Below, one piece after another: positions 1-13,709 of a stretch of DNA of 64,000 bases. A model generated the notes under the pieces. It ran no database searches. It saw only the letters and a program-made list of their open reading frames with translations, and was not told where the DNA came from. The stretch is from Akkermansia muciniphila (GTDB lineage Bacteria; Verrucomicrobiota; Verrucomicrobiia; Limisphaerales; UBA9464). How positions within the stretch are numbered: position 1 is the stretch's first letter; each line of letters begins with the position of its first letter. Where the stretch lies: the NCBI GenBank assembly GCA_945898055.1, contig CAMDGV010000006.1, positions 31,863 to 95,862 on the forward strand, written 5' to 3'. A program made the position numbers and the translations under genes.

Positions 1-3000
1 CCAGATGCTCAACTGATCGGTGATGCCCCCAATGGTCGCATCCTGATGACCGGTCTCGACTCCCATCTTACCGCGATCGAATCTCTTCTCGAATTTGTCA
101 AAAATCCGGTCGCTGCCCCAGGCCAACGAGAAACCCGAATCCTGAATCTCGAGACCGCTCGCGCTGCCGATCTTGCCGCGACGGTCCTCTCTCTTTACCA
201 AGAACAGATTCAGTCCGAAGCGATTCCTCCAGTCGATCAAGCTCTCATCCGGGCTGATCCCTCGGCTAATCGTCTTATCGTCACCGGCTCCACTAACGAC
301 CTAGCTCGTATAACTTCCCTAGTCCGAACGCTCGATGTCTCCAATGACCGCGCTGACGGCGCTCGTGTTTTTCATATCACTAATGCCGAGCCAAATCTAA
401 TCGCCGCCGCTCTTTCTAACTCCTTGGTTAAATTGACACCCGACGGTCGAAGCCTTCCCAAGGTCACTCTGGGCGTCGATAACGCGTCTCGGACTATTGT
501 GGTCTCGGGTGAACCCAATGACCTGATTTCAGCTGCTCAAATTATTTCTAAACTGGACACCAAATCGGTCCTAGCTCCGCGCGATCTTCACCTCCTTCCC
601 ATCCCCTCTGGCTCCGCCTCGGAAGCTCTGTCGCGCCTCCGCCCTCTCATCACCGACCGCCTCAAAACTCTTGGCGGTCTTACTCCTCCTCTGCTCATTT
701 CTGACGAAGCCAATAGCCGCATCCTCGTCACCGCAGATACGAATCAATGGGCAGCCATTCAAGACCTTGCCGCCCGTCTTCTCGACGCCACTACCGTCTC
801 CGGGCGTCAGATTCGACCGGTCCCACTTGAGCATGTAAATGCCACGATCGCGACCCAAATGCTAACTCAACTTTTCGCTCGGGAGCTGGAAGCCACTGAT
901 CCAGCTCAACGTCTGGTTGTCTCCTCCACACCCGATGGACGATCGCTGCTCGTCGATGCCGCCCCGGCGGTCTTCGAGCGATTGAGCTCGGTTATCCGCT
1001 CGATTGATGTCGCCGATGCTGGTGGTTCATCGGTGCTCCAAACGGTCCTGTTAAAAAAAACCTCCGCCGATGCCGTCGCCGAATCGATTAATAAGGCCAT
1101 CAGTAACCGAGGCACCGATGCCCGTCTTCGCCGAGTCACGGTTACCCCTATCACCGGAGCCAACGCTCTTCTGCTCAATGGGCCGGGTGAATCTGTGCAG
1201 GAGGTTATCAAACTCGTCCGTGATCTCGACGCAGAAAGCTCAGGCGGTGAGGTCGAGGTTCGGATTTACAAATTAGGCAGCGCCAACGCCAAAGAGATTC
1301 AGCCCATCCTCTCCCAACTCCTCGCTTCGATTAACACCCGCCTCGATCGCCGAGGTTCTACGGGGAACCGCTCACAGCCGGTTATCGCCATTGATGCCCG
1401 GTCCAATAGCCTGCTCATCACCGCCTCTCTGGTTCATTTTAAAGTGGTCGAACAAATCCTTCCAACTCTCGATAAAGCACCCGAACGGGCCGATCGCGAT
1501 ATTCAAATGGTCTGGCTCCAAAATGCCCGAGCCAATGATCTCCAACAGAAAATTAATGCTGTCTACGAAGATCGCCCTCGATCCGAACAACCGACTATCG
1601 AGACGGATCGCAATGCCAATACTCTGACCGTCATCGCGCGTCGGGCCGACATGCCCCAAATTCAGGACCTCATCCAGCGTCTCGATGCTTCGGCTCAGGA
1701 TAATTCAATCCAAGTTCGCTTGGTCACGGTCGATGATATGCCGGTCGACCAAATGCTGGGGATGCTCACCAACATCTATCCGCAGATGCACGGGTCGAGC
1801 CTCCGTTTGGTAGAGAAACTTCCCCCGCCCGATCTCTCTCGAACGAACACTCCTCTCGCTGCGCCTTCTCCTGAAGTGGTCATCGCTCTCGATCGCGCCG
1901 CAAATGCGCTTATTCTTTCCGGCTCTTCTTCCGAATTAGAAAAGATTAACCGCATGGTTCGCGATCTCTCATGGAATACGATGAGCGGCGAATCAGAACT
2001 TCGCATTATTCCGCTCCTTCAGTCGGATCCCGTCGTCCTTTCTCAAACCCTTAACCGCTTGTTCCGCCCAGAATCACCTCAAGGCCAACCTCCACCTCAG
2101 CCCAACTCTCAACAATCCTCACGGTCGCCTCGACTCTCGGTGGTCGCCGAATCTCGCTCGCGTAGCCTGATTATTCGCGCTTCGGCTAAGGACTTTGCCG
2201 TGATCGTTGGTCTGGTCAAACAACTCGATGTCTCCGGACCGGGCTCAGCTCTTACTCATCGTCTCCTTTCTCTGACCAATACTCCCGCTGCAAAAATCGC
2301 ACCGCTCGTCCAACAACTCGTCCAACAACTCAACACCTTGCACCCCGGCGATCCGCTCACTGTCCTGCCTTACGAACGTTCTCGCAGTCTTTTGGTGATC
2401 GCTCGTGAACCCATGATTGCTCAGGTCGAAGAGATGGTTCGATCTCTCGATGCTCCTTCCTCGAATGCCGATGCCGAAGTTCGCATGTTCACACTCAAGA
2501 ACTCTTCCGCGACCCAAATTACCGCCGTTCTGCAAGGGCTTCTTCGACCAGGACTCGCCGGTGAGACAACTCCCGAAGCACGCGAACTCCAAGAACAGGT
2601 CCGCCGATTGAGTGTCCGTGGAGACAAAGGTGAAGTTGCCTCTCTTGACCTCAATCAACCTATTAAAATTACCCCGGATCCTTCGGGGGGTAATCGGTTG
2701 CTGATTACTTCTACTGCCAAAAACCTCGACGCTCTGGCTCAGGTGGTTGATCTCCTTGATCGGGCCGGAAGTGCCGAAGCCGCTGATGTTAACTTTGTCG
2801 TTCTGCTCAATGCCGACGCTTCTACCGCCGCTCAAACTCTGACCACTATCTTCAGCCAAGGGAGTCGCCTCGGAAGTCGTCTCGGAGGAACTCCCGGTAA
2901 CGCTCAGCCAGAAGCAGGCTCCGGCCGTGCCTTGGTTTCCCCTCTTAATGTCACCGCCGATCGTCGGATGAATGCCCTCATTCTCTCCGGACGACGTGAC

Positions 3001-6000
3001 TCCATCGAACTCGCTCAAAGGCTTCTTCGTGATATCGATAAACCTTGGGATGCCTCAGTCACTGAGGTGAAACTATTCCGTCTCATTCACGCCACCCCAA
3101 GCCGAATCCTCCCACTCCTTGAAGCCGTCTTTAAGGAAGGAACTCCTGTCCCAGGCGCTGAAGGCCTCAGCACTTTTGTTTCTCGCCTTCAAACCCGGCG
3201 CGACGGCGGTAAGACTGTCTCTACCGAACAAGCCAAGGTGCGCTCCGCTCTCACTCTTCAAGCGGATGATGCCTCCTCAACTTTGATCGTCGCCGCTCGT
3301 GCTGATTCACTTCCACTGATCGAGGAAGTCCTCAAACAAATCGATATCTCAGATGCTTCCGGCCTCAGTACAGTTCGCATCTATCCCCTCAAACACGCCG
3401 ATGCCGCTTCACTACAGAAAATTATTACTGATCTTTACAGCGGACCTCGGACCGCCAGTGCCCGTCCCGCCGATCGTCCCGTCATCACGCTCGATGACCG
3501 TAGCAACTCAATGATTGTTTCCGGCAACGAGAAAGCCTTCGCGATCGTTGATAGTCTTCTGGCTCAACTCGACCAACCAATGGCTCTCGAACTACGCGAT
3601 ATCCGAATTCTTCCTCTCGCGCACAGCGATGCGGCACAACTTGCCACCACGCTCCAACGGCTCATGGATCAACGGGTCACCCGTCAAGGCTCTCTGGGTC
3701 GCAGTCAGGCAGAATCACTCCGTGTCCTCATTATCCCAGAGACTCGATCCAATAGCCTCCTCGTTGGCGGCAGTAAAGATGCCTTCGAATTAGTCGAATC
3801 TCTCGCCGCAAAACTGGATCAATCCGCCCCGTCTCTCTCCGGTGGCGTTCGCATCGTTCCTCTCGAATTTGCAGACGCTCGCACCCTCTCTACCTCCCTC
3901 AACCAACTGTTTTCTCAACGTTATCAGGCGTCGACTTCTCCAGAGATTCAACGTCAAAAACCAGTCATTCTTGCCGATTCTAGAATCAATGCACTCCTCG
4001 TCTCGGCCGCCCGCGATGACAACGAAATCATCGATAACCTCCTCAAAAAACTCGACCTGAAATTAGAGAATCCCGCCCTTCGACTCACGGTGATTCCTCT
4101 CAAACATAATGATGCCGCCAAGGTCGCAGGAACTTTAGAAAATGTCTTCGCCGCCCGTCAACAGGCTCGCACGCTCCCAGGTCAAACTCCCTCCCCTACC
4201 GATCGAGTCGAAGTTCAAACCGATAGCCTCAACAACTCGCTGATCGTCTCTTCAAATAAAGAGAACCTTGAAATTATCCACGAACTACTCGGCCGAATCG
4301 ATGTCGAACCATCCGTCGCCGAAGGTGTCCTCGAGACTTTTGTCCTCAAACATGCCGACGCACAACGGATCGCTACCATGCTTCGCGCTCTGGTCCAACA
4401 GGGGATGTACCGCCCAGGTCGGTCGGCAGTAAAGGCCTCCGGCCAAGCCGATCGGGATGCCATGGCTATTACCGTGGATACTCGGAGTAATACGCTCATG
4501 GTCTCGGCTAGCCCCGATAATTTAGGCCTCATTAAAGAGATTATTAAACGGGTCGATAATCCGGATTTTATCGCCGCGACGGATTTGAAAATTTACCAAC
4601 TCGACCACGCTCGTGCCGCCAATCTAGCCGGTGTTCTTAATCAATACTTTCAAGCACGTCGGACCGCTGATACCGCCGTTCTCAATGCTCCAGAACGGAG
4701 TATGCCTGTCGCTGTTATTCCCGATACTCGGCTGAATGCCATCCTCGCTACCGGTAGTAAGGAAGCAATCGACACTCTCGATCGCATTATCCCCCAACTG
4801 GATTCCGAAGATCGCTTGGCTCAACTTAATTTCCGAGTTTTCCCCCTCAAACAGGCCACTGCTGCCCGAATGCAGACGACTCTCCAAAATCTCTTCGCTA
4901 ATCGTCCTCCTCGCTCTCGGGGTGAACCTTCAGACCCGATTACAGTGATCGCCGATGCATGGGTGAATGCTCTCATTGTCGGTGCGGTGGTCGAAGATAT
5001 GTCTATGGTGGATTCTCTCATCGCTCGTCTGGATAGCCAACAGGCTGAACTCGGTCTCGCGGTTGAAGTCATCCCCCTCGCTAAAGCCGATGCCCGCCGT
5101 ATCGCTCTCACCGTTCAAGGCCTCTTCCGCGAGGGCACTCAAGGGGGACCCATTCCAATCGTCGTCACCGCCGATGAACGCGTGAATGCACTGGTCGTCT
5201 CAGCGGGCGCAACTGACCTCAAACGTATTCGCGATGTCGTTGCTAAACTCGATACCGACCAAACCGCTCGAGTCAGTGAGATTAGGGTGATTCCTCTCAA
5301 ATTCGCCCGGGCTGAACTGATGACTCAAGTGCTCAATGCCTCTCTCAATAGCAAACCCTCTCCTCTTTCTGATCTTAGCCCGAACGCCCAATCAGTGCTC
5401 CAATTCGTGACTCGGACAAAGGAGGGCCAAGAACTGGTCACCGCCGCTCTGAAGGAAGCGATTATGATCACTCCTGACCCTCGAATGAATGCACTGGTCG
5501 TATCGGGTCCGGCCGATTACATGGGCTTGCTGGAACAGATTATTGGACGCCTTGATAATAGCTCTCCGCGTGAGGCCAAAATTAAGGTCTTCACTCTACG
5601 CAACGCCGACGCTCAACAGACTTCACAGTTGATTCTTTCGATGTTTCGTATGCAGGCAACGGGGGCCGCAGGCGGAGCCAATCAACGCACCATCGAATAC
5701 ACTCTGATGCGCCCTAATTCCAATGGACTTGAAGCCCCAGGCGCAACCGCAGTCATCGGTTCCGAAGAACAGAGTGCACTCACTGTGAGTGTCGATCCTC
5801 GGACGAATACACTCCTCGTCGGAGGGACTGACCATTACGTTTCTCTCGTTCAGCAGATTATTGAAACTCTCGATTCTTCGGAGGCTCTCGAACGTAGAAC
5901 TGAAGTTTATCGACTCAAAAATGCTCAGGCGGTCGACGTCGGAACGGCGGTTCGCAGCTTCCTCGATCAGGAACGTCAAAAAGTCACTCAAGTGCTCGGG

Positions 6001-7032
6001 ACCGAAGCCGTCGGAACGGCTCAACGCCTTCTCGAACGTGAGGTCGCTATTGTTGCGGAACAGGTCAGCAATACGCTCCTTCTCTCCGCAAGTCCGCGTT
6101 ACTTCGAACAGGTTCACATGATCATCGAAGAACTCGACCACCCTCAACCCCAAGTCCTCATCCAGGTTTTACTCGCGGAAGTGACTCTTGACTCAAATCG
6201 CGATCTTGGTTTCGAGTGGAGCTTCGCCAAAAATGTGGGCGGCGGCTGGAATGTCGGATCGAGTACTGACTTCGGTATCCCTAGCCAACTCCAGAACTTT
6301 GGCGGGTACTCCGCTTTGGTCACTGGCAATAATGTCAACTTTCTCCTCCGCGCTCTGGAAAATGACGGCCGTGTCGAAGTACTAAGCCGTCCTCAAATTC
6401 TCACCTCTGATAATAAACCTGCTTCCATCAATATCGGTCAAAGGGTTCCTCTCATTAGTGGCAGTCAACTCACTCCACAGGGTGGCACTGTCAATACCTT
6501 CGACTATCGCGATGTCGGCGTAAACCTCACCGTAACCCCACGAATCACGGGTGATGGCTTTGTCAAAATTGATGTCGGCGCTACCAATAGCTCTATCAGT
6601 AGTTCCAATGTCGCCATCAATGACAAGGCGACTGTCCCCATTATTAATGAACGCCGCGCAACAACGACGGTCACTGTGCAAAGCGGTCAAACGGTGGTCA
6701 TTGGTGGCCTCATCGGCACAGTCGATGATCTGCGTCGTAAGAAGACGCCTTTCTTCGGTGATATCCCTGTCGTCGGCTTCTTCTTCCGAAGCAACAATAA
6801 GAAATCAGAGCGGCGCGAATTACTAATCATGCTCACGCCTCAAGTGCTCACTTCTGACCACGATCAACCCGCTGTTATTACAGATATCAGTGCTAAATCT
6901 CGGGAAACTCTCGATCAATCGAATCTGCGAACTACTAAACGAACTGATGGGCTGAAGAATCAATTGGTGAACCCTCTCTTCCCCGCCGATAAGGCATCCA
7001 AACAAACTAATGCTCCCGCAAGTTCTCTGTAA
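1..7032 (+). CDS. Giant secretin (GspD/PilQ superfamily), 5'-truncated by the window. About 24 tandem Secretin_N-like modules precede a C-terminal secretin beta-barrel domain.
   Basis: Frame 1 is open from nt 1 (PDAQLIGDAPNGRIL before the first ATG at 46), so the gene starts upstream. The C-terminal ~330 aa carry secretin hallmarks: QVLIQVLLAEVTLD..GFEW, VLSRPQILTSDNKPASINIGQRVP, VVIGGLIG, KTPFFGDIPVVGFFFR, RRELLIMLTPQVL. Upstream lie repeated ~85-95 aa units of the pattern (E/T)VR(I/V)xxLKxADAxxLxxxLxxLF ... VxADxRxNxLIVSGxxxxxxxIxxLIxxLD. Confidence 0.85.
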   Translation, partial: PDAQLIGDAPNGRILMTGLDSHLTAIESLLEFVKNPVAAPGQRETRILNLETARAADLAATVLSLYQEQIQSEAIPPVDQALIRADPSANRLIVTGSTNDLARITSLVRTLDVSNDRADGARVFHITNAEPNLIAAALSNSLVKLTPDGRSLPKVTLGVDNASRTIVVSGEPNDLISAAQIISKLDTKSVLAPRDLHLLPIPSGSASEALSRLRPLITDRLKTLGGLTPPLLISDEANSRILVTADTNQWAAIQDLAARLLDATTVSGRQIRPVPLEHVNATIATQMLTQLFARELEATDPAQRLVVSSTPDGRSLLVDAAPAVFERLSSVIRSIDVADAGGSSVLQTVLLKKTSADAVAESINKAISNRGTDARLRRVTVTPITGANALLLNGPGESVQEVIKLVRDLDAESSGGEVEVRIYKLGSANAKEIQPILSQLLASINTRLDRRGSTGNRSQPVIAIDARSNSLLITASLVHFKVVEQILPTLDKAPERADRDIQMVWLQNARANDLQQKINAVYEDRPRSEQPTIETDRNANTLTVIARRADMPQIQDLIQRLDASAQDNSIQVRLVTVDDMPVDQMLGMLTNIYPQMHGSSLRLVEKLPPPDLSRTNTPLAAPSPEVVIALDRAANALILSGSSSELEKINRMVRDLSWNTMSGESELRIIPLLQSDPVVLSQTLNRLFRPESPQGQPPPQPNSQQSSRSPRLSVVAESRSRSLIIRASAKDFAVIVGLVKQLDVSGPGSALTHRLLSLTNTPAAKIAPLVQQLVQQLNTLHPGDPLTVLPYERSRSLLVIAREPMIAQVEEMVRSLDAPSSNADAEVRMFTLKNSSATQITAVLQGLLRPGLAGETTPEARELQEQVRRLSVRGDKGEVASLDLNQPIKITPDPSGGNRLLITSTAKNLDALAQVVDLLDRAGSAEAADVNFVVLLNADASTAAQTLTTIFSQGSRLGSRLGGTPGNAQPEAGSGRALVSPLNVTADRRMNALILSGRRDSIELAQRLLRDIDKPWDASVTEVKLFRLIHATPSRILPLLEAVFKEGTPVPGAEGLSTFVSRLQTRRDGGKTVSTEQAKVRSALTLQADDASSTLIVAARADSLPLIEEVLKQIDISDASGLSTVRIYPLKHADAASLQKIITDLYSGPRTASARPADRPVITLDDRSNSMIVSGNEKAFAIVDSLLAQLDQPMALELRDIRILPLAHSDAAQLATTLQRLMDQRVTRQGSLGRSQAESLRVLIIPETRSNSLLVGGSKDAFELVESLAAKLDQSAPSLSGGVRIVPLEFADARTLSTSLNQLFSQRYQASTSPEIQRQKPVILADSRINALLVSAARDDNEIIDNLLKKLDLKLENPALRLTVIPLKHNDAAKVAGTLENVFAARQQARTLPGQTPSPTDRVEVQTDSLNNSLIVSSNKENLEIIHELLGRIDVEPSVAEGVLETFVLKHADAQRIATMLRALVQQGMYRPGRSAVKASGQADRDAMAITVDTRSNTLMVSASPDNLGLIKEIIKRVDNPDFIAATDLKIYQLDHARAANLAGVLNQYFQARRTADTAVLNAPERSMPVAVIPDTRLNAILATGSKEAIDTLDRIIPQLDSEDRLAQLNFRVFPLKQATAARMQTTLQNLFANRPPRSRGEPSDPITVIADAWVNALIVGAVVEDMSMVDSLIARLDSQQAELGLAVEVIPLAKADARRIALTVQGLFREGTQGGPIPIVVTADERVNALVVSAGATDLKRIRDVVAKLDTDQTARVSEIRVIPLKFARAELMTQVLNASLNSKPSPLSDLSPNAQSVLQFVTRTKEGQELVTAALKEAIMITPDPRMNALVVSGPADYMGLLEQIIGRLDNSSPREAKIKVFTLRNADAQQTSQLILSMFRMQATGAAGGANQRTIEYTLMRPNSNGLEAPGATAVIGSEEQSALTVSVDPRTNTLLVGGTDHYVSLVQQIIETLDSSEALERRTEVYRLKNAQAVDVGTAVRSFLDQERQKVTQVLGTEAVGTAQRLLEREVAIVAEQVSNTLLLSASPRYFEQVHMIIEELDHPQPQVLIQVLLAEVTLDSNRDLGFEWSFAKNVGGGWNVGSSTDFGIPSQLQNFGGYSALVTGNNVNFLLRALENDGRVEVLSRPQILTSDNKPASINIGQRVPLISGSQLTPQGGTVNTFDYRDVGVNLTVTPRITGDGFVKIDVGATNSSISSSNVAINDKATVPIINERRATTTVTVQSGQTVVIGGLIGTVDDLRRKKTPFFGDIPVVGFFFRSNNKKSERRELLIMLTPQVLTSDHDQPAVITDISAKSRETLDQSNLRTTKRTDGLKNQLVNPLFPADKASKQTNAPASSL

Positions 7033-7565
7033 TGTCCTACTCCTTTCAACTTCTCTCCACTCGCCTCGTCTGTACCCTCGCTCTACTGACCCTCGCCGCT
7101 TGCTCCTCTTCCTCACCCAAGTCGCCTAAGTCGCCCAAGCCCCTAGCTCGCACCACCACCCGCTCTGGTATTACCGAACTTCATCTTCTTACCATGCCGA
7201 TTGCCCTCAATCTAGACGCCTCCCCAGGCGACGATGGCATCGCGATTAAACTTTTTGCAAATTTCGCCGGTGCCATCAAACCGGTCGCCATTCGCTCGGG
7301 TGAGATTGAACTGCTCCTCTTCGATGGCCTTCTGCAACCGGGCAGCACTGTACCCGCCCCAGCCTTCACCTGGCACTTTACCTCTCAACAACTCAAACAA
7401 TTCGAAAATAAATCTCTGCTCGGGGTTGGCTATCAACTCACCCTGCGATGGGATCGCTTCAAACCCTCCAGCGAGCGAATCACTGTCGTCGCTCGTTATG
7501 CCCTCGGTCAGGGTCGCTTCCTTTACTCTAGTCCTAGCGTTATCGCTTGCTCCTCGACTCATTAA
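7032..7565 (+). CDS. Small lipoprotein of unknown function; candidate secretin accessory/pilotin.
   Basis: The N-terminus has a signal peptide with lipobox (LALLTLAAC-SSS) followed by an SPKSPKSPKP linker. The ATG shares one nucleotide with the secretin stop codon (TAATG). No family recognised. Confidence 0.6.
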   Translation: MSYSFQLLSTRLVCTLALLTLAACSSSSPKSPKSPKPLARTTTRSGITELHLLTMPIALNLDASPGDDGIAIKLFANFAGAIKPVAIRSGEIELLLFDGLLQPGSTVPAPAFTWHFTSQQLKQFENKSLLGVGYQLTLRWDRFKPSSERITVVARYALGQGRFLYSSPSVIACSSTH

Positions 7566-7592: not shown

Positions 7593-10448
7593 ATGTCCTC
7601 TTTCTCTGTCTGGCTTGGTCTTTGTCTCGCTGCCACCGCTGTCTCGCTGTCCACTCTCGCCGCTCCAACTCTCCCCGCCCGCGACTGGCTCATTGACCCC
7701 ACCCCTTTTAAAGCACGCATCGTCGTCAATCCCGACGGCAAACAGATCGAACTCAATAACGGCCTTATCCGACGCATTATCCGTCTGGATCCCAATGCCG
7801 CTACGGTTGCTCTCGATCAACTTTCCACCGGCGAATCTCTTCTCCGTGGCGTTAAACCTGAGGCGATTGTCGAAATTGATGGCCGACGATTTGATGTCGG
7901 TGGACTTAAAGGACAACCCAATTACGCCTTCCTTCGGCCTGAATGGATTTCTGCTCTTCACGCCGATCCGGATGCTTTTCAATTCACCGGGTATTCCATC
8001 GGTCAACCTCTAGAACGATTGGCTTGGAAACGCACTCGCCATCATGCCCCCGATCTCGCTTGGCCGCCCAAGGGTGTCACTTTACGCCTCGATTTTATTG
8101 CGCCCGCAAGCAGCGTTAGTGATCAAAATAGCTCCTCAACCGGACGCCCTTTGGTCTTTGATGACCCCTTCCTGGTCCTTGATCCGTCTTGGGAAATACA
8201 TACCTCCTCACGCCACCCACGAGTTAGCTTTCGTAATGAAGGTAAGTTGGGAGAGATCTACGCCCTCAACGGCTCTTCTTGCTTCGCCGAACGCGCACTG
8301 AAGTCGCCGGTGTCAGTCATCGAAATGGTCATCAGTCTCGGCACTGATGGCGATACTAGCTGGGGACCTAGCCTCGCTCTGCTCTTCGGATCTCACTCCA
8401 TCAAGGTGAATCTTCGCCCCGGTGATCGCGGAACCCATGGCCACTTCGAACTGCGCAATAATGGGGCCGAAAGTCTCACCTCTCTTCAACAATTCGCCGC
8501 TGCTGATGGCGGCCTCGATACCGCACGCACTTACCGTCTGCGCGCTCGAATCTCACCGACTTCCATCCTTTGGGATGTCGCCGATGAGGCCCTTCTTCCT
8601 CTACAGTTCCATCGCCTCTTCGAAGTCGCTCATAAGGGCTCCCTTCCCACAACCCTGCGGGTGGGGAAATTAGACCCCCAAGGCCAGGGTTCAGACGACT
8701 CATTTACCGCCAATAGCTCGACCTGGGGGCGCAGTCGGATTTCTCGCGTTCTCGCCTACGGGCCCTTCGATCCCAGCCTCGTTGCGAGGACTCCTACCCC
8801 CCTAAACGGAGACATCCACGTCTCTGTTCACTACGAACTCTACGACGGTCTGCCTTGCTTCTCTAAATGGATTACGGTCGATAATCTCACCAGCAAATCA
8901 GTGACTCTTAACGGTTTCTCGAGTGAAGTACTCGCCGTGGTCGAACGAACCTCCGAAGTCGATGAACTCAGTGACGGTCGTACTCCTCCTAATATCCACG
9001 TCGATACCGATATGTCCTTCGGTGGCATGATGAGTTCGGCGGCGAATCGACGGTCTTTCCGCTGGCTGCCGGATCCTGAATTTCATTCTCAAGTTAATTA
9101 CGAGAAAAAAACCCCTTGTTTATTAGACGTCGGCCCTGATCTCGGTCCTGCCCAAACCCTCCTCCCGGGTGGGAAATTCGAATCCTATCGCGCTTGGATT
9201 CTTCCCTTCGATTCCTCGGATCGTGAACGCTGTGGTCTCGCGGTTCGCCGTCTTTATCGCCTCAATGCCCCTTGGACCACGGAGAATCCACTGATGATGC
9301 ATCTGGTCTCTTCTCAAGGACAAAGCGTCACCAATGCCATCGATCAATGTGTGGCGACTGGTTTCGAAATGCTCATTCTCAGCTTCGGTAGCGGTTTCGA
9401 TATGGAAAACGAAAAACCCGCTACCCTCGAAAAAGCACAAGCTTTTTCTTCCTACGCCCGAAGTCGTGGCATCGAAATTGGTAGCTACTCTTTGCTCTCC
9501 TCTCGCCACGTCGGCGGCGGCAATGATGTGATCATGCCACCCGGTCTCAAACCAACCTTTGGCCATGCCCCCTGTCTTCAAAGTCGCTGGGGTACAAATT
9601 ATTTCCGACGCCTTTACGAATTCCATCGCCACAGTGGCTTCACCCTTCTCGAACACGACGGTTCCTATCCCGGGGATCCTTGCGCCGCTACCCATCACCC
9701 AGGACACCATGGCTTGGCCGATTCTCGGTGGAATCAATGGCGCGAAATTAATAACTTCTACCGATGGTGCAGGGCCGAGGGATTCTATCTGAATGTTCCC
9801 GACCATTACTTTCTCTCGGGTTCTACCAAAACCGCGATGGGCTATCGCGAGGTCAACTGGTCTCTCCCTCGTGAACAACAAATTATTCATACCCGACAAA
9901 ACATCTTCGACGGCACTTGGCAGAAACTCCCTAGCATGGGATGGATGTTTGTTCCACTCACTGAATACCAAGGGGGCGGGGCGGCGGCTACCATCGAGCC
10001 TCTCTCTGAACATCTCTCTCACTACTCGGCGATGTTAGAGAGCAATCTCGCCCTCGGTGTCCAAGCCTGCTATCGAGGCCCTCGCCTCTACGATACCGAA
10101 ATCACTCGGGCTCAAGTCAAATCCAAGGTCGAATGGTTCAAGGCACATCGAGATATTCTGGAAAGTGACCTCATCCATGGCCGTCGCGCCGATGCACGAG
10201 ATCTCGACTGGATGCTGCACGTGAATCCTCATCTCAAATCCAAAGGACTTCTCGCCGTATTTAATCCCCTCGATCATCCCGTCTCTCGCACTCTTCGAGT
10301 CAATCTCTACTACACAGGACTCCAAAACTCGACTCTCGTCCGTGAACGCGATTCCCGAGGGCATCGACTCAAATTGGGACGAGATCACAGCATCGAACTG
10401 CCTGTGACTGTTTCGGCGCAAAGTATGAACTGGTTTGTATTCGAATAA
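7593..10448 (+). CDS. Large secreted hypothetical protein, possibly glycoside-hydrolase-like (central TIM-barrel-like region with flanking beta-sandwich regions). Function not established.
   Basis: A 951-aa ORF with a cleavable signal peptide (MSSFSVWLGLCLAATAVSLSTLAAP). The central region (GFEMLILSFGSGFD..., LEHDGSYPGDPC..HHPGHHG) resembles sugar-processing barrel enzymes only by general look. It starts 27 bp after the lipoprotein gene on the same strand. Confidence 0.55.
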   Translation: MSSFSVWLGLCLAATAVSLSTLAAPTLPARDWLIDPTPFKARIVVNPDGKQIELNNGLIRRIIRLDPNAATVALDQLSTGESLLRGVKPEAIVEIDGRRFDVGGLKGQPNYAFLRPEWISALHADPDAFQFTGYSIGQPLERLAWKRTRHHAPDLAWPPKGVTLRLDFIAPASSVSDQNSSSTGRPLVFDDPFLVLDPSWEIHTSSRHPRVSFRNEGKLGEIYALNGSSCFAERALKSPVSVIEMVISLGTDGDTSWGPSLALLFGSHSIKVNLRPGDRGTHGHFELRNNGAESLTSLQQFAAADGGLDTARTYRLRARISPTSILWDVADEALLPLQFHRLFEVAHKGSLPTTLRVGKLDPQGQGSDDSFTANSSTWGRSRISRVLAYGPFDPSLVARTPTPLNGDIHVSVHYELYDGLPCFSKWITVDNLTSKSVTLNGFSSEVLAVVERTSEVDELSDGRTPPNIHVDTDMSFGGMMSSAANRRSFRWLPDPEFHSQVNYEKKTPCLLDVGPDLGPAQTLLPGGKFESYRAWILPFDSSDRERCGLAVRRLYRLNAPWTTENPLMMHLVSSQGQSVTNAIDQCVATGFEMLILSFGSGFDMENEKPATLEKAQAFSSYARSRGIEIGSYSLLSSRHVGGGNDVIMPPGLKPTFGHAPCLQSRWGTNYFRRLYEFHRHSGFTLLEHDGSYPGDPCAATHHPGHHGLADSRWNQWREINNFYRWCRAEGFYLNVPDHYFLSGSTKTAMGYREVNWSLPREQQIIHTRQNIFDGTWQKLPSMGWMFVPLTEYQGGGAAATIEPLSEHLSHYSAMLESNLALGVQACYRGPRLYDTEITRAQVKSKVEWFKAHRDILESDLIHGRRADARDLDWMLHVNPHLKSKGLLAVFNPLDHPVSRTLRVNLYYTGLQNSTLVRERDSRGHRLKLGRDHSIELPVTVSAQSMNWFVFE

Positions 10449-11680: not shown

Positions 11681-11902
11681 ATCAGATTACCAACCAAATC
11701 TTCCACCAACTTGAATTTGAAAACGACCCCTAGAGCTCCAACCCCTTTCCCTTTTAGGTTCTTTAAGGCCTTCAGCGTCTAAAAGTGCCGTCTCAGTCGC
11801 CAGTCAATTTAAGCCCTTCCGTTTAAAAAATTTAAGCAATTAAAGATTGCCAATCGCTGATCGCTGGTGACCATCTGGGAAACGAGGGCACTTGAATATA
11901 AG

Positions 11903-12640
11903 ATGAAAAATTATCTACTAACAATTTCAGTCTCGGCCTCGCTCTGCTCCGCAGTTGTCGCCGATACAACGACCGTCTCTGGGACCACCCCCGGCACCTA
12001 TGCTGGGGGCACAAGTGGCGGAACAAGCCTCAACTACACTGGGAGCATCCTGACCATTAGTCAGTGGAATCCAGCATCGTTTCCGGGTATGACCCTGACG
12101 GGCGTCGAGTACAGGCTCACCAGCTTCGCCTACGGCACCTACACAATTAATAACGGTGCTCAAATTGCTGATTTCGAGGTCAGTCTTTCCAACATTAGTT
12201 CCAGTCTAACGGGGCCTTTCGGCACATCACCTGCCCTGAGTCGAAACAACTCTACTTTTGGTGGTGGTGTTTTTGAAACATTGAGTGGTGTTGCAGCTAA
12301 TGCCTCAGTGAGTGGCACGACGACTCTAGCAACGAGCACGACGACGGCTTTCACTGCTGATTCCAATTTCCTCAGTTACGTCGGAACCGGAACTGTTTCA
12401 TTCACTCTCGCCGAATCCGGAACCTTGGGAATCGGTGGGACTGCAGTGTCTGGCGCTAATCCAATCGTTTCCTTTACCCAGTCAGCATCCAAGTTCGGTG
12501 CCAGTACCGTCGATGTCCGCTACACCTACTCGTCTAGCGCCGTCCCTGAACCTAGCACCTACGCTGCGATTGGGTTTGTCGGTCTCCTTGTCGGATCAAC
12601 CCTCTGGCGACGGCGGCAGCAGATGGCGAACCAGAAGTAA
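11903..12640 (+). CDS. PEP-CTERM sorting-domain protein (secreted, Thr/Ser/Gly-rich).
   Basis: The ATG at 11903 gives a signal peptide (MKNYLLTISVSASLCSAVVA). The C-terminus, VPEPSTYAAIGFVGLLVGSTLWRRRQ, is a PEP motif plus TM helix plus basic tail. The longer ORF from 11867 is less likely. Confidence 0.8.
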   Translation: MKNYLLTISVSASLCSAVVADTTTVSGTTPGTYAGGTSGGTSLNYTGSILTISQWNPASFPGMTLTGVEYRLTSFAYGTYTINNGAQIADFEVSLSNISSSLTGPFGTSPALSRNNSTFGGGVFETLSGVAANASVSGTTTLATSTTTAFTADSNFLSYVGTGTVSFTLAESGTLGIGGTAVSGANPIVSFTQSASKFGASTVDVRYTYSSSAVPEPSTYAAIGFVGLLVGSTLWRRRQQMANQK

Positions 12641-12857: not shown

Positions 12858-13709
12858 ATGTCGAATCCTCACTCTCGCTTCGTCCTCTGCCAGAGACGAG
12901 TCCACCACGGGTTCACCTTGATCGAACTCCTTGTGGTCATCGCGATTATTGCCATCCTCGCCGGGATGCTTCTGCCTTCTTTAGCTAAGGCCAAAGCAAA
13001 GGCTCAAGGCATCAAGTGCTTGAATAATCTAAAACAGTTGCAACTCGCACACCTGCTTTACCCCACTGACAACCGAGAAATCCTGACCAAACCCGGTAAT
13101 AGCGGAACCGAACTCTACGCTTGGGTGGGCGGTTGGCTCGACTACAATCCTGGTACTCCCGACAATACAAACAAATTAGATCTCCTAGACCCCAAACGGG
13201 CCATGTTCGCCCCCTATCTGCCCTCTGCTGAGGTTTATAAATGCCCCGCCGATTTCAGCTATGTCACCATTAAGGGCCAACGTTACCCTCGGGTCCGCAG
13301 TATGTCCATGAGCCAAGCAATGGGTGGGCCCGGGGGGTGGCTTCCACCCTCGGGTTACAACGAGGGACAGACTCGCTATAAGGTCTTCATTAAAACCTCC
13401 GATTTTCTCTCGCCCTCGATGCATTATGTACTCCTCGACGAACATCCAGACGGCATCAACGCCGGTGGTTACGCCAATATGATGGTCGAAAGTGCGGCTG
13501 CGGCGCGTATCATCGATTACCCAGCCAGTTATCACAACGGTGCCGCCGGCATCTCCTTTGTCGACGGCCATGCCGAAATCAAAAAATGGCTGGATTCCCG
13601 GACAAAGCCACCGGTCCGCTTCAACAGTAACCTCGCGCTCAATGTTGGTTCCCCCAACAATGTCGATGTAATCTGGCTCGCCGATCGGACCACCGTGCTA
13701 GCGAAGTAG
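12858..13709 (+). CDS. Prepilin-type N-terminal cleavage/methylation domain protein (pseudopilin-like, DUF1559/H-X9-DG type common in PVC bacteria).
   Basis: The N-terminus [45 protein letters not shown] is the classic type IV pilin-like leader and helix. The C-terminal [14 protein letters not shown] resembles the H-X9-DG tail. Confidence 0.85.

Follow-up and report, generated by a model that had tools for sequence, protein, structure and literature searches.

The locus and the layout of the giant secretin gene

The window, the 64,000-nucleotide stretch of contig analysed here, opens inside a giant gspD gene on the forward strand. An uninterrupted frame of 2,343 codons runs from nt 1 to the stop codon at nt 7030–7032 and represents the 3′ 60% of the gene (nt 1–7032, stop codon included; codons 1594–3936 of a 3,936-codon ORF), encoding the C-terminal 2,343 residues of the product. 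The remainder is supplied by contigs 99.2–99.7% identical in DNA to the window, in which the upstream frame stays open, giving 11.8 kb without interruption and a full product of 3,936 residues. The part encoded in the window is 100% identical to this full-length protein (P0001), window residue 1 being P0001 residue 1594. An earlier note on this DNA had rightly placed the start outside the window and the gene in a PVC bacterium (the host belongs to the Verrucomicrobiota), but its figure of more than 2,340 residues understates the size of the protein.

The full-length protein starts with a Sec signal peptide and a GspD-type N0 domain, continues through 43 contiguous modules into a single secretin barrel, and ends in a short tail. 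Modules were counted with an HMM trained on the repeats of the protein itself, which recovered every module: 43 in the full protein, with exactly 24 complete modules in the window (window residues 37–2046) and one truncated at nt 1. The earlier note had arrived at the same count within the window, and its total of about 25 is an underestimate. The modules are N1/N3-like, that is, Secretin_N domains with a β-α-β-β-α topology. Pfam Secretin_N (PF03958) matches 22 stretches in the window (724 bits) and 41 in the full protein. The …LIxxLD ending ascribed to every module holds for 21 of the 24 in the form [LIVM]xx[LIVM]D; the other three are variant.

Module 19, cut by the window edge, retains nt 1–93 (P0001 residues 1569–1624; own HMM). 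The own HMM and the module alignment place the first complete modules at nt 109–336 (module 20), 337–558 (module 21, a paralogue of module 17 with 44% identity), 559–783 (module 22, a variant ending in …ARLL whose conservation of 0.50 is among the lowest of all positions), 784–1008 (module 23), 1009–1230 (module 24), 1231–1473 (module 25) and 1474–1686 (module 26). Module 27 (nt 1687–1971) has a loop insertion and ends in …RDLS; it is followed by modules 28 (1975–2229) and 29 (2230–2451), module 30 with a long α1–β2 loop (2452–2760), module 31 (2761–3039) and module 32, also with a long loop (3040–3345). The best Pfam Secretin_N stretch (residues 1125–1194) lies in module 33 (nt 3346–3573). 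Beyond it, the same two methods delimit modules 34 (3574–3819), 35 (3820–4056), 36 (4060–4302), 37 (4303–4557), 38 (4558–4803), 39 (4804–5034), 40 (5035–5253) and 41 (5254–5556), the last being highly conserved (0.82). Module 42 (nt 5557–5874) lies inside the stretch that aligns to GspD structures, and module 43 (nt 5875–6138) occupies the place of N3 beside the barrel and aligns to the PulD/GspD N3 region.

The barrel/gate domain spans nt 6139–6870, with a Pfam core at nt 6352–6849 (PF00263) and supporting PDB matches. It begins at about residue 2047 (Pfam core from 2118), whereas the boundary first proposed, about residue 1985, falls inside the last N-module. A tail of about 53 residues (nt 6871–7029; conservation 0.42, without family match) precedes a gene for a conserved 177-residue lipoprotein (nt 7032–7565, forward strand), whose start codon shares bases with the stop of the secretin gene (TAATG).

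Assignment to the GspD-type secretins

A Pfam scan, one of the checks that the earlier note had suggested, scores the modules as Secretin_N and the barrel as Secretin. PF00263 is present in a single copy at window residues 2118–2283 (169.5 bits against a cutoff of 27.5); together with the PDB matches this identifies one C-terminal barrel of GspD type, as anticipated. The C-terminal region matches 23 solved secretins at E ≤ 1e-5, including PulD (4.7e-43) and E. coli GspD (1.7e-41). PilQ structures reach about 1e-30, pIV and RcpA also rank below GspD, and InvG and MxiD reach only 1e-11 to 1e-12. The TIGR02517 GspD model scores 825 bits against an equivalog cutoff of 351; the module repeats inflate this total through 13 matching stretches, and the best single stretch covers profile positions 126–596 of 600. 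The T3SS secretin model TIGR02516 also exceeds its cutoff, at 316 bits, yet remains far below the GspD score. We rejected the T3SS secretin SctC/InvG as an identity on the basis of these far weaker model and structure scores and of the lack of T3SS genes nearby in orthologous loci.

Although Pfam N0 stays below its cutoff at the N-terminus (21.2 versus 27 bits), we consider the presence of an N0 domain to be met: an N-terminal orthologue profile aligns to E. coli GspD residues 12–319 (N0–N3) with E = 3e-12, and the model topology and Foldseek matches described below agree. The usual GspD domain count of N0-N1-N2-N3 is not met, as 43 modules follow N0, which makes the giant secretin a variant rather than an ordinary GspD member. 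The C-terminal tail resembles no known S-domain and matches no Pfam family; it is possible, by inference alone, that it acts as an S-domain-like pilotin-binding tail.

Genomic context agrees with the domain assignment. An otherwise canonical type II secretion system is encoded directly upstream of the giant gspD, in the order gspE-F-G-H-I-J-K-L, orf333, giant gspD, lipoprotein. All of these T2SS genes lie outside the window and are documented only in near-identical and orthologous contigs, where the search for upstream neighbours proposed earlier recovered a full operon. The gspL C-terminus and orf333 lie immediately before the giant gspD in one contig that shares 99.2% identity with the window, and the orthologous loci L008 and L010 carry gspE, F, G, H, I, J, K and L-like genes and orf333 upstream of that gene. 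Synteny of gspG through orf333 with the giant gspD ranges from 50/52 to 69/72 across genome loci. Pfam matches in the operon include T2SSG, GspH, T2SSJ and T2SSK-type pseudopilins, and the gspL-like gene carries a PilM_2 domain.

No GspC or PDZ protein is recognisable among the neighbours. The model of the orf333 product shows a PilO/GspM-like fold (Foldseek TM 0.60–0.68, probability 1.0), a Pro-rich linker and then a β-domain that resembles PilP, a structural homologue of GspC-HR, with TM 0.56 and probability 0.95 but a weak Foldseek E-value of 0.16. An identification of orf333 as GspC or GspM by sequence was rejected: the PDB profile search was empty, and Pfam T2SSM matched only 5 of 25 members, below threshold.

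The PilM_2 domain and the resemblance of orf333 to PilO plus PilP could instead point to a secretin that serves a type IV pilus or another type IV filament machine, in which a long PilQ-like neck would guide the pilus fibre. The TIGR02515 PilQ model is indeed above its cutoff (347 versus 284 bits), and, as a mechanism, a tube that guides a fibre is more readily imagined than a 150 nm piston. We nevertheless judge this reading very improbable. The operon contains gspG (T2SSG), gspH, gspJ and gspK (T2SSK) matches in the E-F-G-H-I-J-K-L order typical of T2SSs, the E-values of GspD structures are better than those of PilQ by about 12 orders of magnitude, Pfam finds no AMIN domains in the window part or the full protein, and there is no pilT near orthologous loci. 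That the window gene encodes a genuine giant T2SS GspD-type secretin we hold to be almost certain.

The downstream lipoprotein gene is translationally coupled to the giant gspD. Its product has the lipobox LTLAAC, and in homologues at the same position (61% and 36% identity) the signal peptide is invariably followed by a Cys. From its position, we infer that it is a candidate pilotin or accessory protein; it cannot be equated with a known pilotin, as no Pfam or PDB sequence match was obtained. An ORF of 951 residues (nt 7593–10448) was discarded as a system component: it has no family match and is absent at this place in orthologous loci.

Authenticity, conservation and distribution

The window was assembled from short metagenomic reads (k141 contigs), and genes with tandem domains are notoriously prone to mis-assembly; the repeat number could have been inflated by mis-assembly of similar repeats, or the gene could be a decaying pseudogene. 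This explanation is effectively refuted. No module-sized tandem DNA arrays were found in the window gene, whose best direct DNA repeat family is 38 nt long at 61–74% identity, with no repeat beyond 38 nt at more than 74% identity. Six independent assemblies yield the same 3,936-residue product, the architecture recurs, with 44–45 modules, in a long-read (Canu) contig and in hybrid contigs, and the uninterrupted 11.8-kb frame has collinear positional orthologues in at least 165 species. The earlier note had reported no long exact nucleotide repeats and argued against an artefact; both statements are borne out, and the long-read support that it called for exists at contig level.

The giant gspD family comprises at least 165 species-level genomes of Limisphaerales/Pedosphaera-type Verrucomicrobiota, in which the T2SS operon carrying it is conserved. 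Module number in the family is 40–45, with a mode of 43. Module i best matches module i across species, at 50–80% identity, and the median identity between positions is 28%. This positional orthology and the held module number support the proposal of an old, selectively maintained expansion. The most conserved part is N0 with modules 1–3 (0.79–0.82, versus 0.72 for the barrel); the central modules show the lowest conservation and a variable copy number, and duplication and loss of a four-module block, represented by modules 15–18 and 19–22, are tolerated. No cultured carrier was identified among the 80 genome loci listed or the named proteins, all of which are MAGs.

A survey of 1.84 billion proteins revealed a wider PVC class with up to 6,885 residues, in which module counts form a smooth series between 27 and 74. 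Multi-module proteins number 1,941 representatives. All named members belong to the Planctomycetota or Verrucomicrobiota, and the class appears confined to these two phyla. The database label, 'type II secretion system protein D', is an automatic annotation of the kind the earlier note expected, and its statement that no functional or structural characterisation was known agrees with our full-text searches, which found no description of poly-N giant secretins. A 2025 paper on a 'slime nozzle' secretin deals with PilQ/GspD of normal size, and giant-gene surveys in the literature do not mention secretins. The multi-module secretin design is uncharacterised and common to many Verrucomicrobiota and Planctomycetota.

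Fold of the modules and junctions between them

An AF2 model of the N-terminal part (pLDDT 72) displays an N0 domain with β-α-β-α-β-β topology followed by β-α-β-β-α modules, and its best Foldseek matches are PulD, XcpQ and ETEC GspD N0–N2 (probability 1.0). Structure prediction, another check suggested beforehand, supports the module assignment at the level of monomers only. Monomer models have a low pTM of 0.33, which leaves the inter-module orientation undefined. The junctions between modules have a constant length of about 10 residues, length variation is restricted to a single internal loop, and no Pro/Gly-rich linkers were seen at the junctions. KH-family Pfam matches over the modules were rejected as evidence of RNA binding; they are weak, fold-level cross-matches of the β-α-β-β-α unit.

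The low pTM would be compatible with a flexible tether, in which the barrel oligomerises, most N-modules form no closed rings, and 12–15 bead-on-a-string chains hang in the periplasm, so that the pore stays loosely connected to an inner-membrane platform that can move as the distance between the membranes changes, for example where cytoplasmic membranes invaginate in PVC cells. Even in solved secretins the N0–N2 rings are often disordered (PMC5745081), and low conservation with variable copy number is what would be expected of central modules serving as a spacer. We find this unlikely: the junctions are short and constant and lack the Pro/Gly-rich linkers of a flexible chain, whereas the partner orf333 does have a Pro-rich linker; conservation of each position at 50–80% between species goes beyond the needs of a passive tether; and homologous domains form rings in all solved secretins.

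Strong position-specific conservation combined with 28% identity between positions could also reflect a docking scaffold, in which distinct modules each recruit their own partner (cargo enzymes, chaperones, peptidoglycan or other envelope components) and module number would measure the partner repertoire rather than a distance. The Secretin_N/KH-like fold lends itself to binding of many kinds, as the weak KH-family matches recall, and secretion of many carbohydrate-active enzymes has been described for such Verrucomicrobiota and Planctomycetota (PMC11131199). The neighbourhood shows no co-varying partner genes, however, and synteny there is limited to the T2SS core, orf333 and one lipoprotein; the tolerated four-module duplications and losses, the restriction of partner binding in known secretins to N0/N1, and the smooth 27–74 range, which suggests that length is the variable, also weigh against a scaffold, and we regard it as distinctly improbable.

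A proposed stacked-ring model

We favour a giant T2SS secretin whose modules form a stacked-ring conduit or ruler across the enlarged PVC periplasm, and assign this complete statement a probability of roughly 0.55. Its mechanistic part taken alone, the long conduit or ruler, is at best an even bet, with ring formation by the approximately 40 extra modules being inferred without an oligomer model. The homo-oligomeric outer-membrane channel itself, a 12–19-mer in the secretin superfamily, is likewise inferred from other secretins, without multimer prediction or experiment. By analogy with these, the giant secretin would assemble as a 12–15-mer in the outer membrane, and the same-numbered modules of all chains would come together in one ring. 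With one ring per module number, N0 and 43 modules would give about 44 stacked rings and, at 3–4 nm per ring, a tube or rigid spacer of about 130–175 nm; the ring heights are taken from published structures and not from models of the giant secretin. Such a channel could be about five times longer than the width of a normal periplasm. To our knowledge, 130–175 nm is far beyond any characterised trans-envelope machine, and we know of no precedent for a pseudopilus 'piston' acting over that distance.

At the distal end, the C-terminal domain of orf333, which is PilP/GspC-HR-like, may connect the N0 ring to the inner-membrane platform, in which case the array would link the inner-membrane motor and pseudopilus base to the outer-membrane pore. 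The array might thereby span a much enlarged PVC periplasm ('paryphoplasm'), with module number as a genetically fixed ruler and with the divergence between positions keeping the chains in register during assembly. A paryphoplasm compartment is present in Ellin514, a cultured relative from subdivision 3 (PMC2647929). The conjectured tie between a long conduit and an enlarged PVC periplasm, which the earlier note had raised conditionally, is consistent with our findings; the width of the periplasm in these uncultured Limisphaerales is not known.

The strictest form of the model remains doubtful: a closed homo-oligomeric tube of 44–75 N-rings, about 0.13–0.3 µm long and 6–10 MDa in mass, that bridges the PVC periplasm and combines ruler and register code. 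Through such a tube, the T2SS motor on the cytoplasmic membrane would send folded proteins or a long pseudopilus to an outer-membrane pore far away, and the inter-position divergence would serve as the code by which 12–15 chains assemble in phase. If so, no longer trans-envelope conduit would be known from bacteria, and the tube would give molecular access to the disputed cell plan of the PVC group.

Comparison with known secretins

Ordinary secretin pores carry the N-type domain three or four times. Current secretin models assume few N-rings, with a piston pseudopilus, cargo loading at the GspC–N0/N1 interface and a vestibule of 20–35 nm. A conserved class with 27–74 N-modules in complete T2SS operons does not fit these models: either secretion acts over 5–10 times the assumed distance, or N-domains serve a purpose other than ring formation that has gone unrecognised. 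Since the class is apparently confined to Verrucomicrobiota and Planctomycetota, it offers a sequence-encoded probe of the debated enlarged PVC periplasm, and the giant secretin is a natural test case for the in-register assembly of tandem homologous domains in a homo-oligomer.

The design is shared by the giants of the Phycisphaerae/Planctomycetota (e.g. OQB85541.1, 6,805 residues; P0282, 6,885 residues), which also have N0, many Secretin_N modules and one C-terminal barrel, and differ in having up to 74 modules and in belonging to a different PVC phylum. They exist as database entries only, annotated 'Type II secretion system protein D precursor', and our literature searches found no studies of them.

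GspD, PulD, XcpQ and EpsD (solved 15-mers, e.g. 5wq7, 6hcg and 5wln) share with the giant secretin a signal peptide, N0, Secretin_N-type domains and a C-terminal barrel, and GspD-type secretins provide the best sequence and fold matches at both of its ends as well as a common gspE–M-type gene context. GspD has N0 and three N-domains in about 650 residues, whereas the giant secretin has N0 and 43 modules in 3,936 residues, with about 40 extra modules between an N0–N3-like start and an N3–barrel end. Its operon also differs from GspD systems in lacking a recognisable separate GspC, with orf333 (PilO/GspM-like plus a PilP-like domain) in the adjacent slot, and, unlike in usual GspD systems, gspD comes last and is followed by a novel lipoprotein.

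Among secretins adapted to unusual envelopes, the Deinococcus radiodurans envelope secretin (PMC10828601; 8co1) similarly serves an atypically thick or complex envelope, and it is among the PDB matches of the giant secretin. Its adaptation is reported to rely on accessory belt and cap proteins around a secretin of normal length (740 residues), without N-domain multiplication. The only characterised precedent for a secretin lengthened by added N-rings is Thermus thermophilus PilQ (PMC5745081; PMC4463427), which works in a machine for type IV pili and DNA uptake and has six rings, 757 residues and a 35-nm complex; the giant secretin differs from it in its inferred number of about 44 rings (7-fold more), its T2SS context and its phylum.

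A giant GspD-type secretin with 43 N-domain modules

Nucleotides 1-7032 (+) form a single open frame of 2,343 codons that lacks a start within the window, runs off its 5' edge and terminates with a TAA codon at 7030-7032. Pfam assigned 22 stretches of this frame to Secretin_N (724 bits summed) and one copy to the Secretin domain (aa 2118-2283), whereas a hidden Markov model (HMM) derived from the protein's own repeats resolved a gapless tiling of 24 complete modules (aa 37-2046) and one truncated at the edge. The module count and the single canonical secretin domain put forward in the earlier note from the sequence alone are reproduced exactly, and the modules do score as Secretin_N; the barrel, placed there at ~aa 1985, begins somewhat later, at ~aa 2047, with the Pfam core from aa 2118. 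The modules are diverged, with a mean column identity of only ~23% in our alignment of the window modules, and no module-sized tandem arrays were detected in the DNA of the module region, the longest repeat being a 38-nt motif at 61-74% identity, in line with the reported absence of long exact nucleotide repeats. Weak Pfam matches to the eukaryotic KH_DEAH11 and KH_PARP14_2 families lie over N-modules at aa 623-657 and 1813-1849 (nt ~1867-1971 and ~5437-5547); we read them as probable fold-level cross-matches of the β-α-β-β-α unit.

The 177-aa ORF that follows the secretin is present on nine contigs from different samples, and the preceding product comprises 3,936 aa in 6/6 contigs listed. The best local alignment between the window part and a database protein of this length, P0001, shows 100% identity, and the tail of P0001 is 99.8% identical to the product of L001, a contig near-identical to the window; judged by sequence, P0001 is a near-identical variant of the window's protein. 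The frame of the missing 1,593 codons is uninterrupted in L001 and in a second such contig, L007 (99.65% and 99.2% DNA identity to the window, respectively). P0001 has an N-terminal Sec signal peptide (...FAGSALA/QQ), contains 43 contiguous modules at aa 145-3639 with our HMM (41 by Pfam) and yields a mature chain of 422 kDa with a pI of 6.0. The size of more than 2,340 aa and roughly two dozen modules initially described therefore holds for the window part and understates the whole.

Residues ~50-125 of P0001 are assigned to an N0 domain from sequence and model. The Pfam N0 model remains below threshold (21 vs 27 bits), and a profile of 16 orthologues aligns with E. coli GspD residues 12-319 (N0-N3; E=3e-12). 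The AF2 model of the N-terminal region (pLDDT 72) adopts a β-α-β-α-β-β fold followed by β-α-β-β-α units, and its top Foldseek matches are PulD, XcpQ N0-N2 and ETEC GspD N0-N2 (probability 1.0). The C-terminal part, made up of the last modules and the barrel, gives its best matches to PulD (4.7e-43) and E. coli GspD (1.7e-41), with PilQ (~1e-30) and then pIV, RcpA and InvG far behind, and TIGR02517 (GspD) scores 825 bits, one stretch spanning profile positions 126-596 of 600. Since both the start and the end are GspD-like, the protein is a GspD with ~40 extra N-modules in between.

Module number and position are conserved

One Canu contig and two hybrid contigs encode 44-45 modules without a break in the frame, which offers long-read support of the kind that had been called for. 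Together with the concordance of independent assemblies and the lack of DNA repeats, this indicates that the architecture is not an artefact. The N-terminal region occurs in 165 species-level genomes; those listed are all MAGs, essentially all of Verrucomicrobiota (Limisphaerales/Pedosphaera). Several carrier MAGs bear the labels 'Akkermansia muciniphila', 'Klebsiella', 'Cyanophyceae', 'Methylomirabilota' or 'Proteobacteria', which probably reflect submitter labelling or the misbinning of contigs from freshwater Verrucomicrobiota.

In 25 orthologues, the most distant at 38% BLASTP identity, module number is 40-45 (mode 43). In 4/5 orthologues tested, window module i best matches module i almost everywhere, at 50-80% identity, compared with a median of 28% among modules within one protein. 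Fixed number and positional orthology support the earlier reading of an old, selectively maintained expansion. Exceptions to positional matching are concentrated in modules 14-22 (M14-22), where a younger four-module block duplication is apparent (15~19 and 16~20 at 50%, 17~21 at 44%); window nt 1-783 holds modules 19-22 of this zone. Lineage differences in module number (40, 43, 45) fall in the same zone, and these comparisons suggest block-wise gain and loss.

Conservation is high at the ends of the chain (N0, 0.81; modules 1-3, 0.79-0.82; M41, 0.82) and low in the centre (0.48-0.56 for M14, M19, M22, M23 and M31), with the barrel, at 0.72, below N0 and modules 1-3. A scaffold on which multiple partners dock is one rival explanation for so many modules. 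Nearly all module length variation resides in the α1-β2 loop. From the closing '...LD' helix of one module to β1 of the following one, the junction measures about 10 residues in ~38/42 cases and is not Pro/Gly-rich. These junctions speak against a second rival, a flexible tether that forms no rings; the low pTM (0.33) of the monomer model would fit it.

The giant gspD closes a T2SS operon

In orthologous loci, the giant gspD ends a complete T2SS operon in the order gspE-gspF-gspG-gspH-gspI-gspJ-gspK-PilM_2/GspL_C-orf333-secretin-ORF of ~180 aa, with Pfam domains MshEN and T2SSE in gspE, T2SSG in gspG, T2SSK in gspK and PilM_2/GspL_C in a 551-aa protein. Of 80 genome loci, those with enough sequence have the gspG-orf333 block upstream and in the same orientation in 50/52 to 69/72 cases; about half also have adjacent gspE and gspF. 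The lineage of the window itself has the C-terminal part of gspL and then orf333 immediately before the giant gspD. Extension into near-identical and orthologous contigs located both the true start and the T2SS genes.

The 333-aa product of orf333 (L007 96-1097; L010, an orthologous locus, 8956-9957), encoded just upstream of the giant gspD and outside the window, has no sequence relative in Pfam or the PDB; T2SSM is below threshold in 5/25 members, and all 662 database homologues are labelled 'hypothetical'. Its AF2 model (pLDDT 78.5) comprises a long TM/coiled-coil helix, an α/β unit, a proline-rich linker and a six-stranded β-domain. Foldseek relates the first part to PilO (TM 0.60-0.68, probability 1.0) and, more weakly, the last part to PilP (TM 0.56, probability 0.95, E=0.16). 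PilP and the GspC HR domain are known N0-binding modules of T4P and T2SS systems. A PilP/GspC-HR-like, N0-binding role for the β-domain is a lead rather than a proof, without binding data, and orf333 may merge the roles of GspM and GspC-HR in one predicted protein. A pilus-type rather than a secretion-type machine is a third rival; the PilO and PilP matches would fit it, and the gsp gene order and the GspD-first ranking of the last modules and barrel speak against it.

The secretin stop codon overlaps the ATG (TAATG) of a 177-aa lipoprotein gene (7032-7565, +; lipobox LTLAAC). Orthologous loci encode the lipoprotein at the same place (61% and 36% identity), a Cys following the signal peptide in every case, and neither Pfam nor the PDB contains a relative; the lipoprotein is possibly a pilotin, perhaps of a new family, an inference from position only. 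A 951-aa ORF with a signal peptide (7593-10448, +), starting 28 nt past the lipoprotein gene, has no Pfam match, is not at this position in the orthologous loci L008 and L010, and probably lies outside the secretion system. The remainder of the window holds housekeeping genes. A few kb 3' of the secretin, beyond an oppositely oriented thioredoxin-like gene, are genes for a PEP-CTERM-motif protein (11867-12640, +) and a protein with a prepilin-type N-terminal methylation motif (12858-13709, +). GC skew is negative across nearly all of 1-64000 (cumulative -3.4), yet most long ORFs are on the + strand.

A wider class of giant secretins

We searched 1.84 billion representative proteins with a profile built from the window's 24 modules; 16,821 proteins matched at E<=1e-3, of which 1,941 reached E<=1e-30, with 21-57 matched stretches in each of the best 150. 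Among 163 proteins retrieved, a C-terminal barrel is present in exactly one copy in 145, and an N0 is present in 141. Those of full length, 126 in all, contain 27-74 modules (median 39) in 2,794-6,885 aa, and named members come from Phycisphaerae/Planctomycetota or Verrucomicrobia MAGs. This places the window protein in the middle of the range of a PVC-wide class. The largest found, P0277 (6,805 aa) and P0282 (6,885 aa) from Phycisphaerae MAGs, each combine 74 modules with a single N0 and a single barrel. As anticipated, public entries carry type II secretion system labels, such as OQB85541.1 (6,805 aa, 74 modules; 'Type II secretion system protein D precursor').

Discussion

Our data identify the protein as a GspD-type secretin, encoded in a T2SS operon and bearing 43 N-modules whose number and positions are conserved. 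From the solved secretins, all of which serve here as the analogy, we infer that the barrel would oligomerise and like-numbered N-domains would form rings; at 3-4 nm per ring, N0 and 43 modules would extend roughly 130-175 nm, and a 15-mer would have a mass of ~6.3 MDa. Such a conduit would link two functional interfaces by a stiff spacer of fixed length, a view that fits the high N0-M3 conservation, the PilP-like domain on the Pro-rich tether of orf333, the constant short junctions and the variable centre. With positions so dissimilar to one another and each so well conserved, 12-15 chains would also be kept in register. We know of no precedent for a piston acting across 150 nm. The paryphoplasm compartment of Ellin514, a cultured subdivision-3 verrucomicrobium (PMC2647929), and the enlarged periplasm noted for Planctomycetota (PMC11131199) make a place for a long structure plausible. 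With no data on ring formation or on the carriers' periplasm width, we consider the long conduit plausible, not demonstrated, at a probability of about 0.45-0.5.

The components and the family are already known, and the sequences are public and auto-annotated. Our literature search, from which most subscription journals were out of scope, found no papers describing or analysing poly-N giant secretins, and secretins go unmentioned in surveys of giant bacterial genes; this agrees with the earlier note, which knew of no characterisation, and does not exclude prior mention. The observation made there is confirmed and was understated, and the interpretation is supported in all its testable parts. 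Current secretin models leave unexplained a 10- to 20-fold periplasmic-domain expansion, its tight conservation and its apparent PVC restriction.
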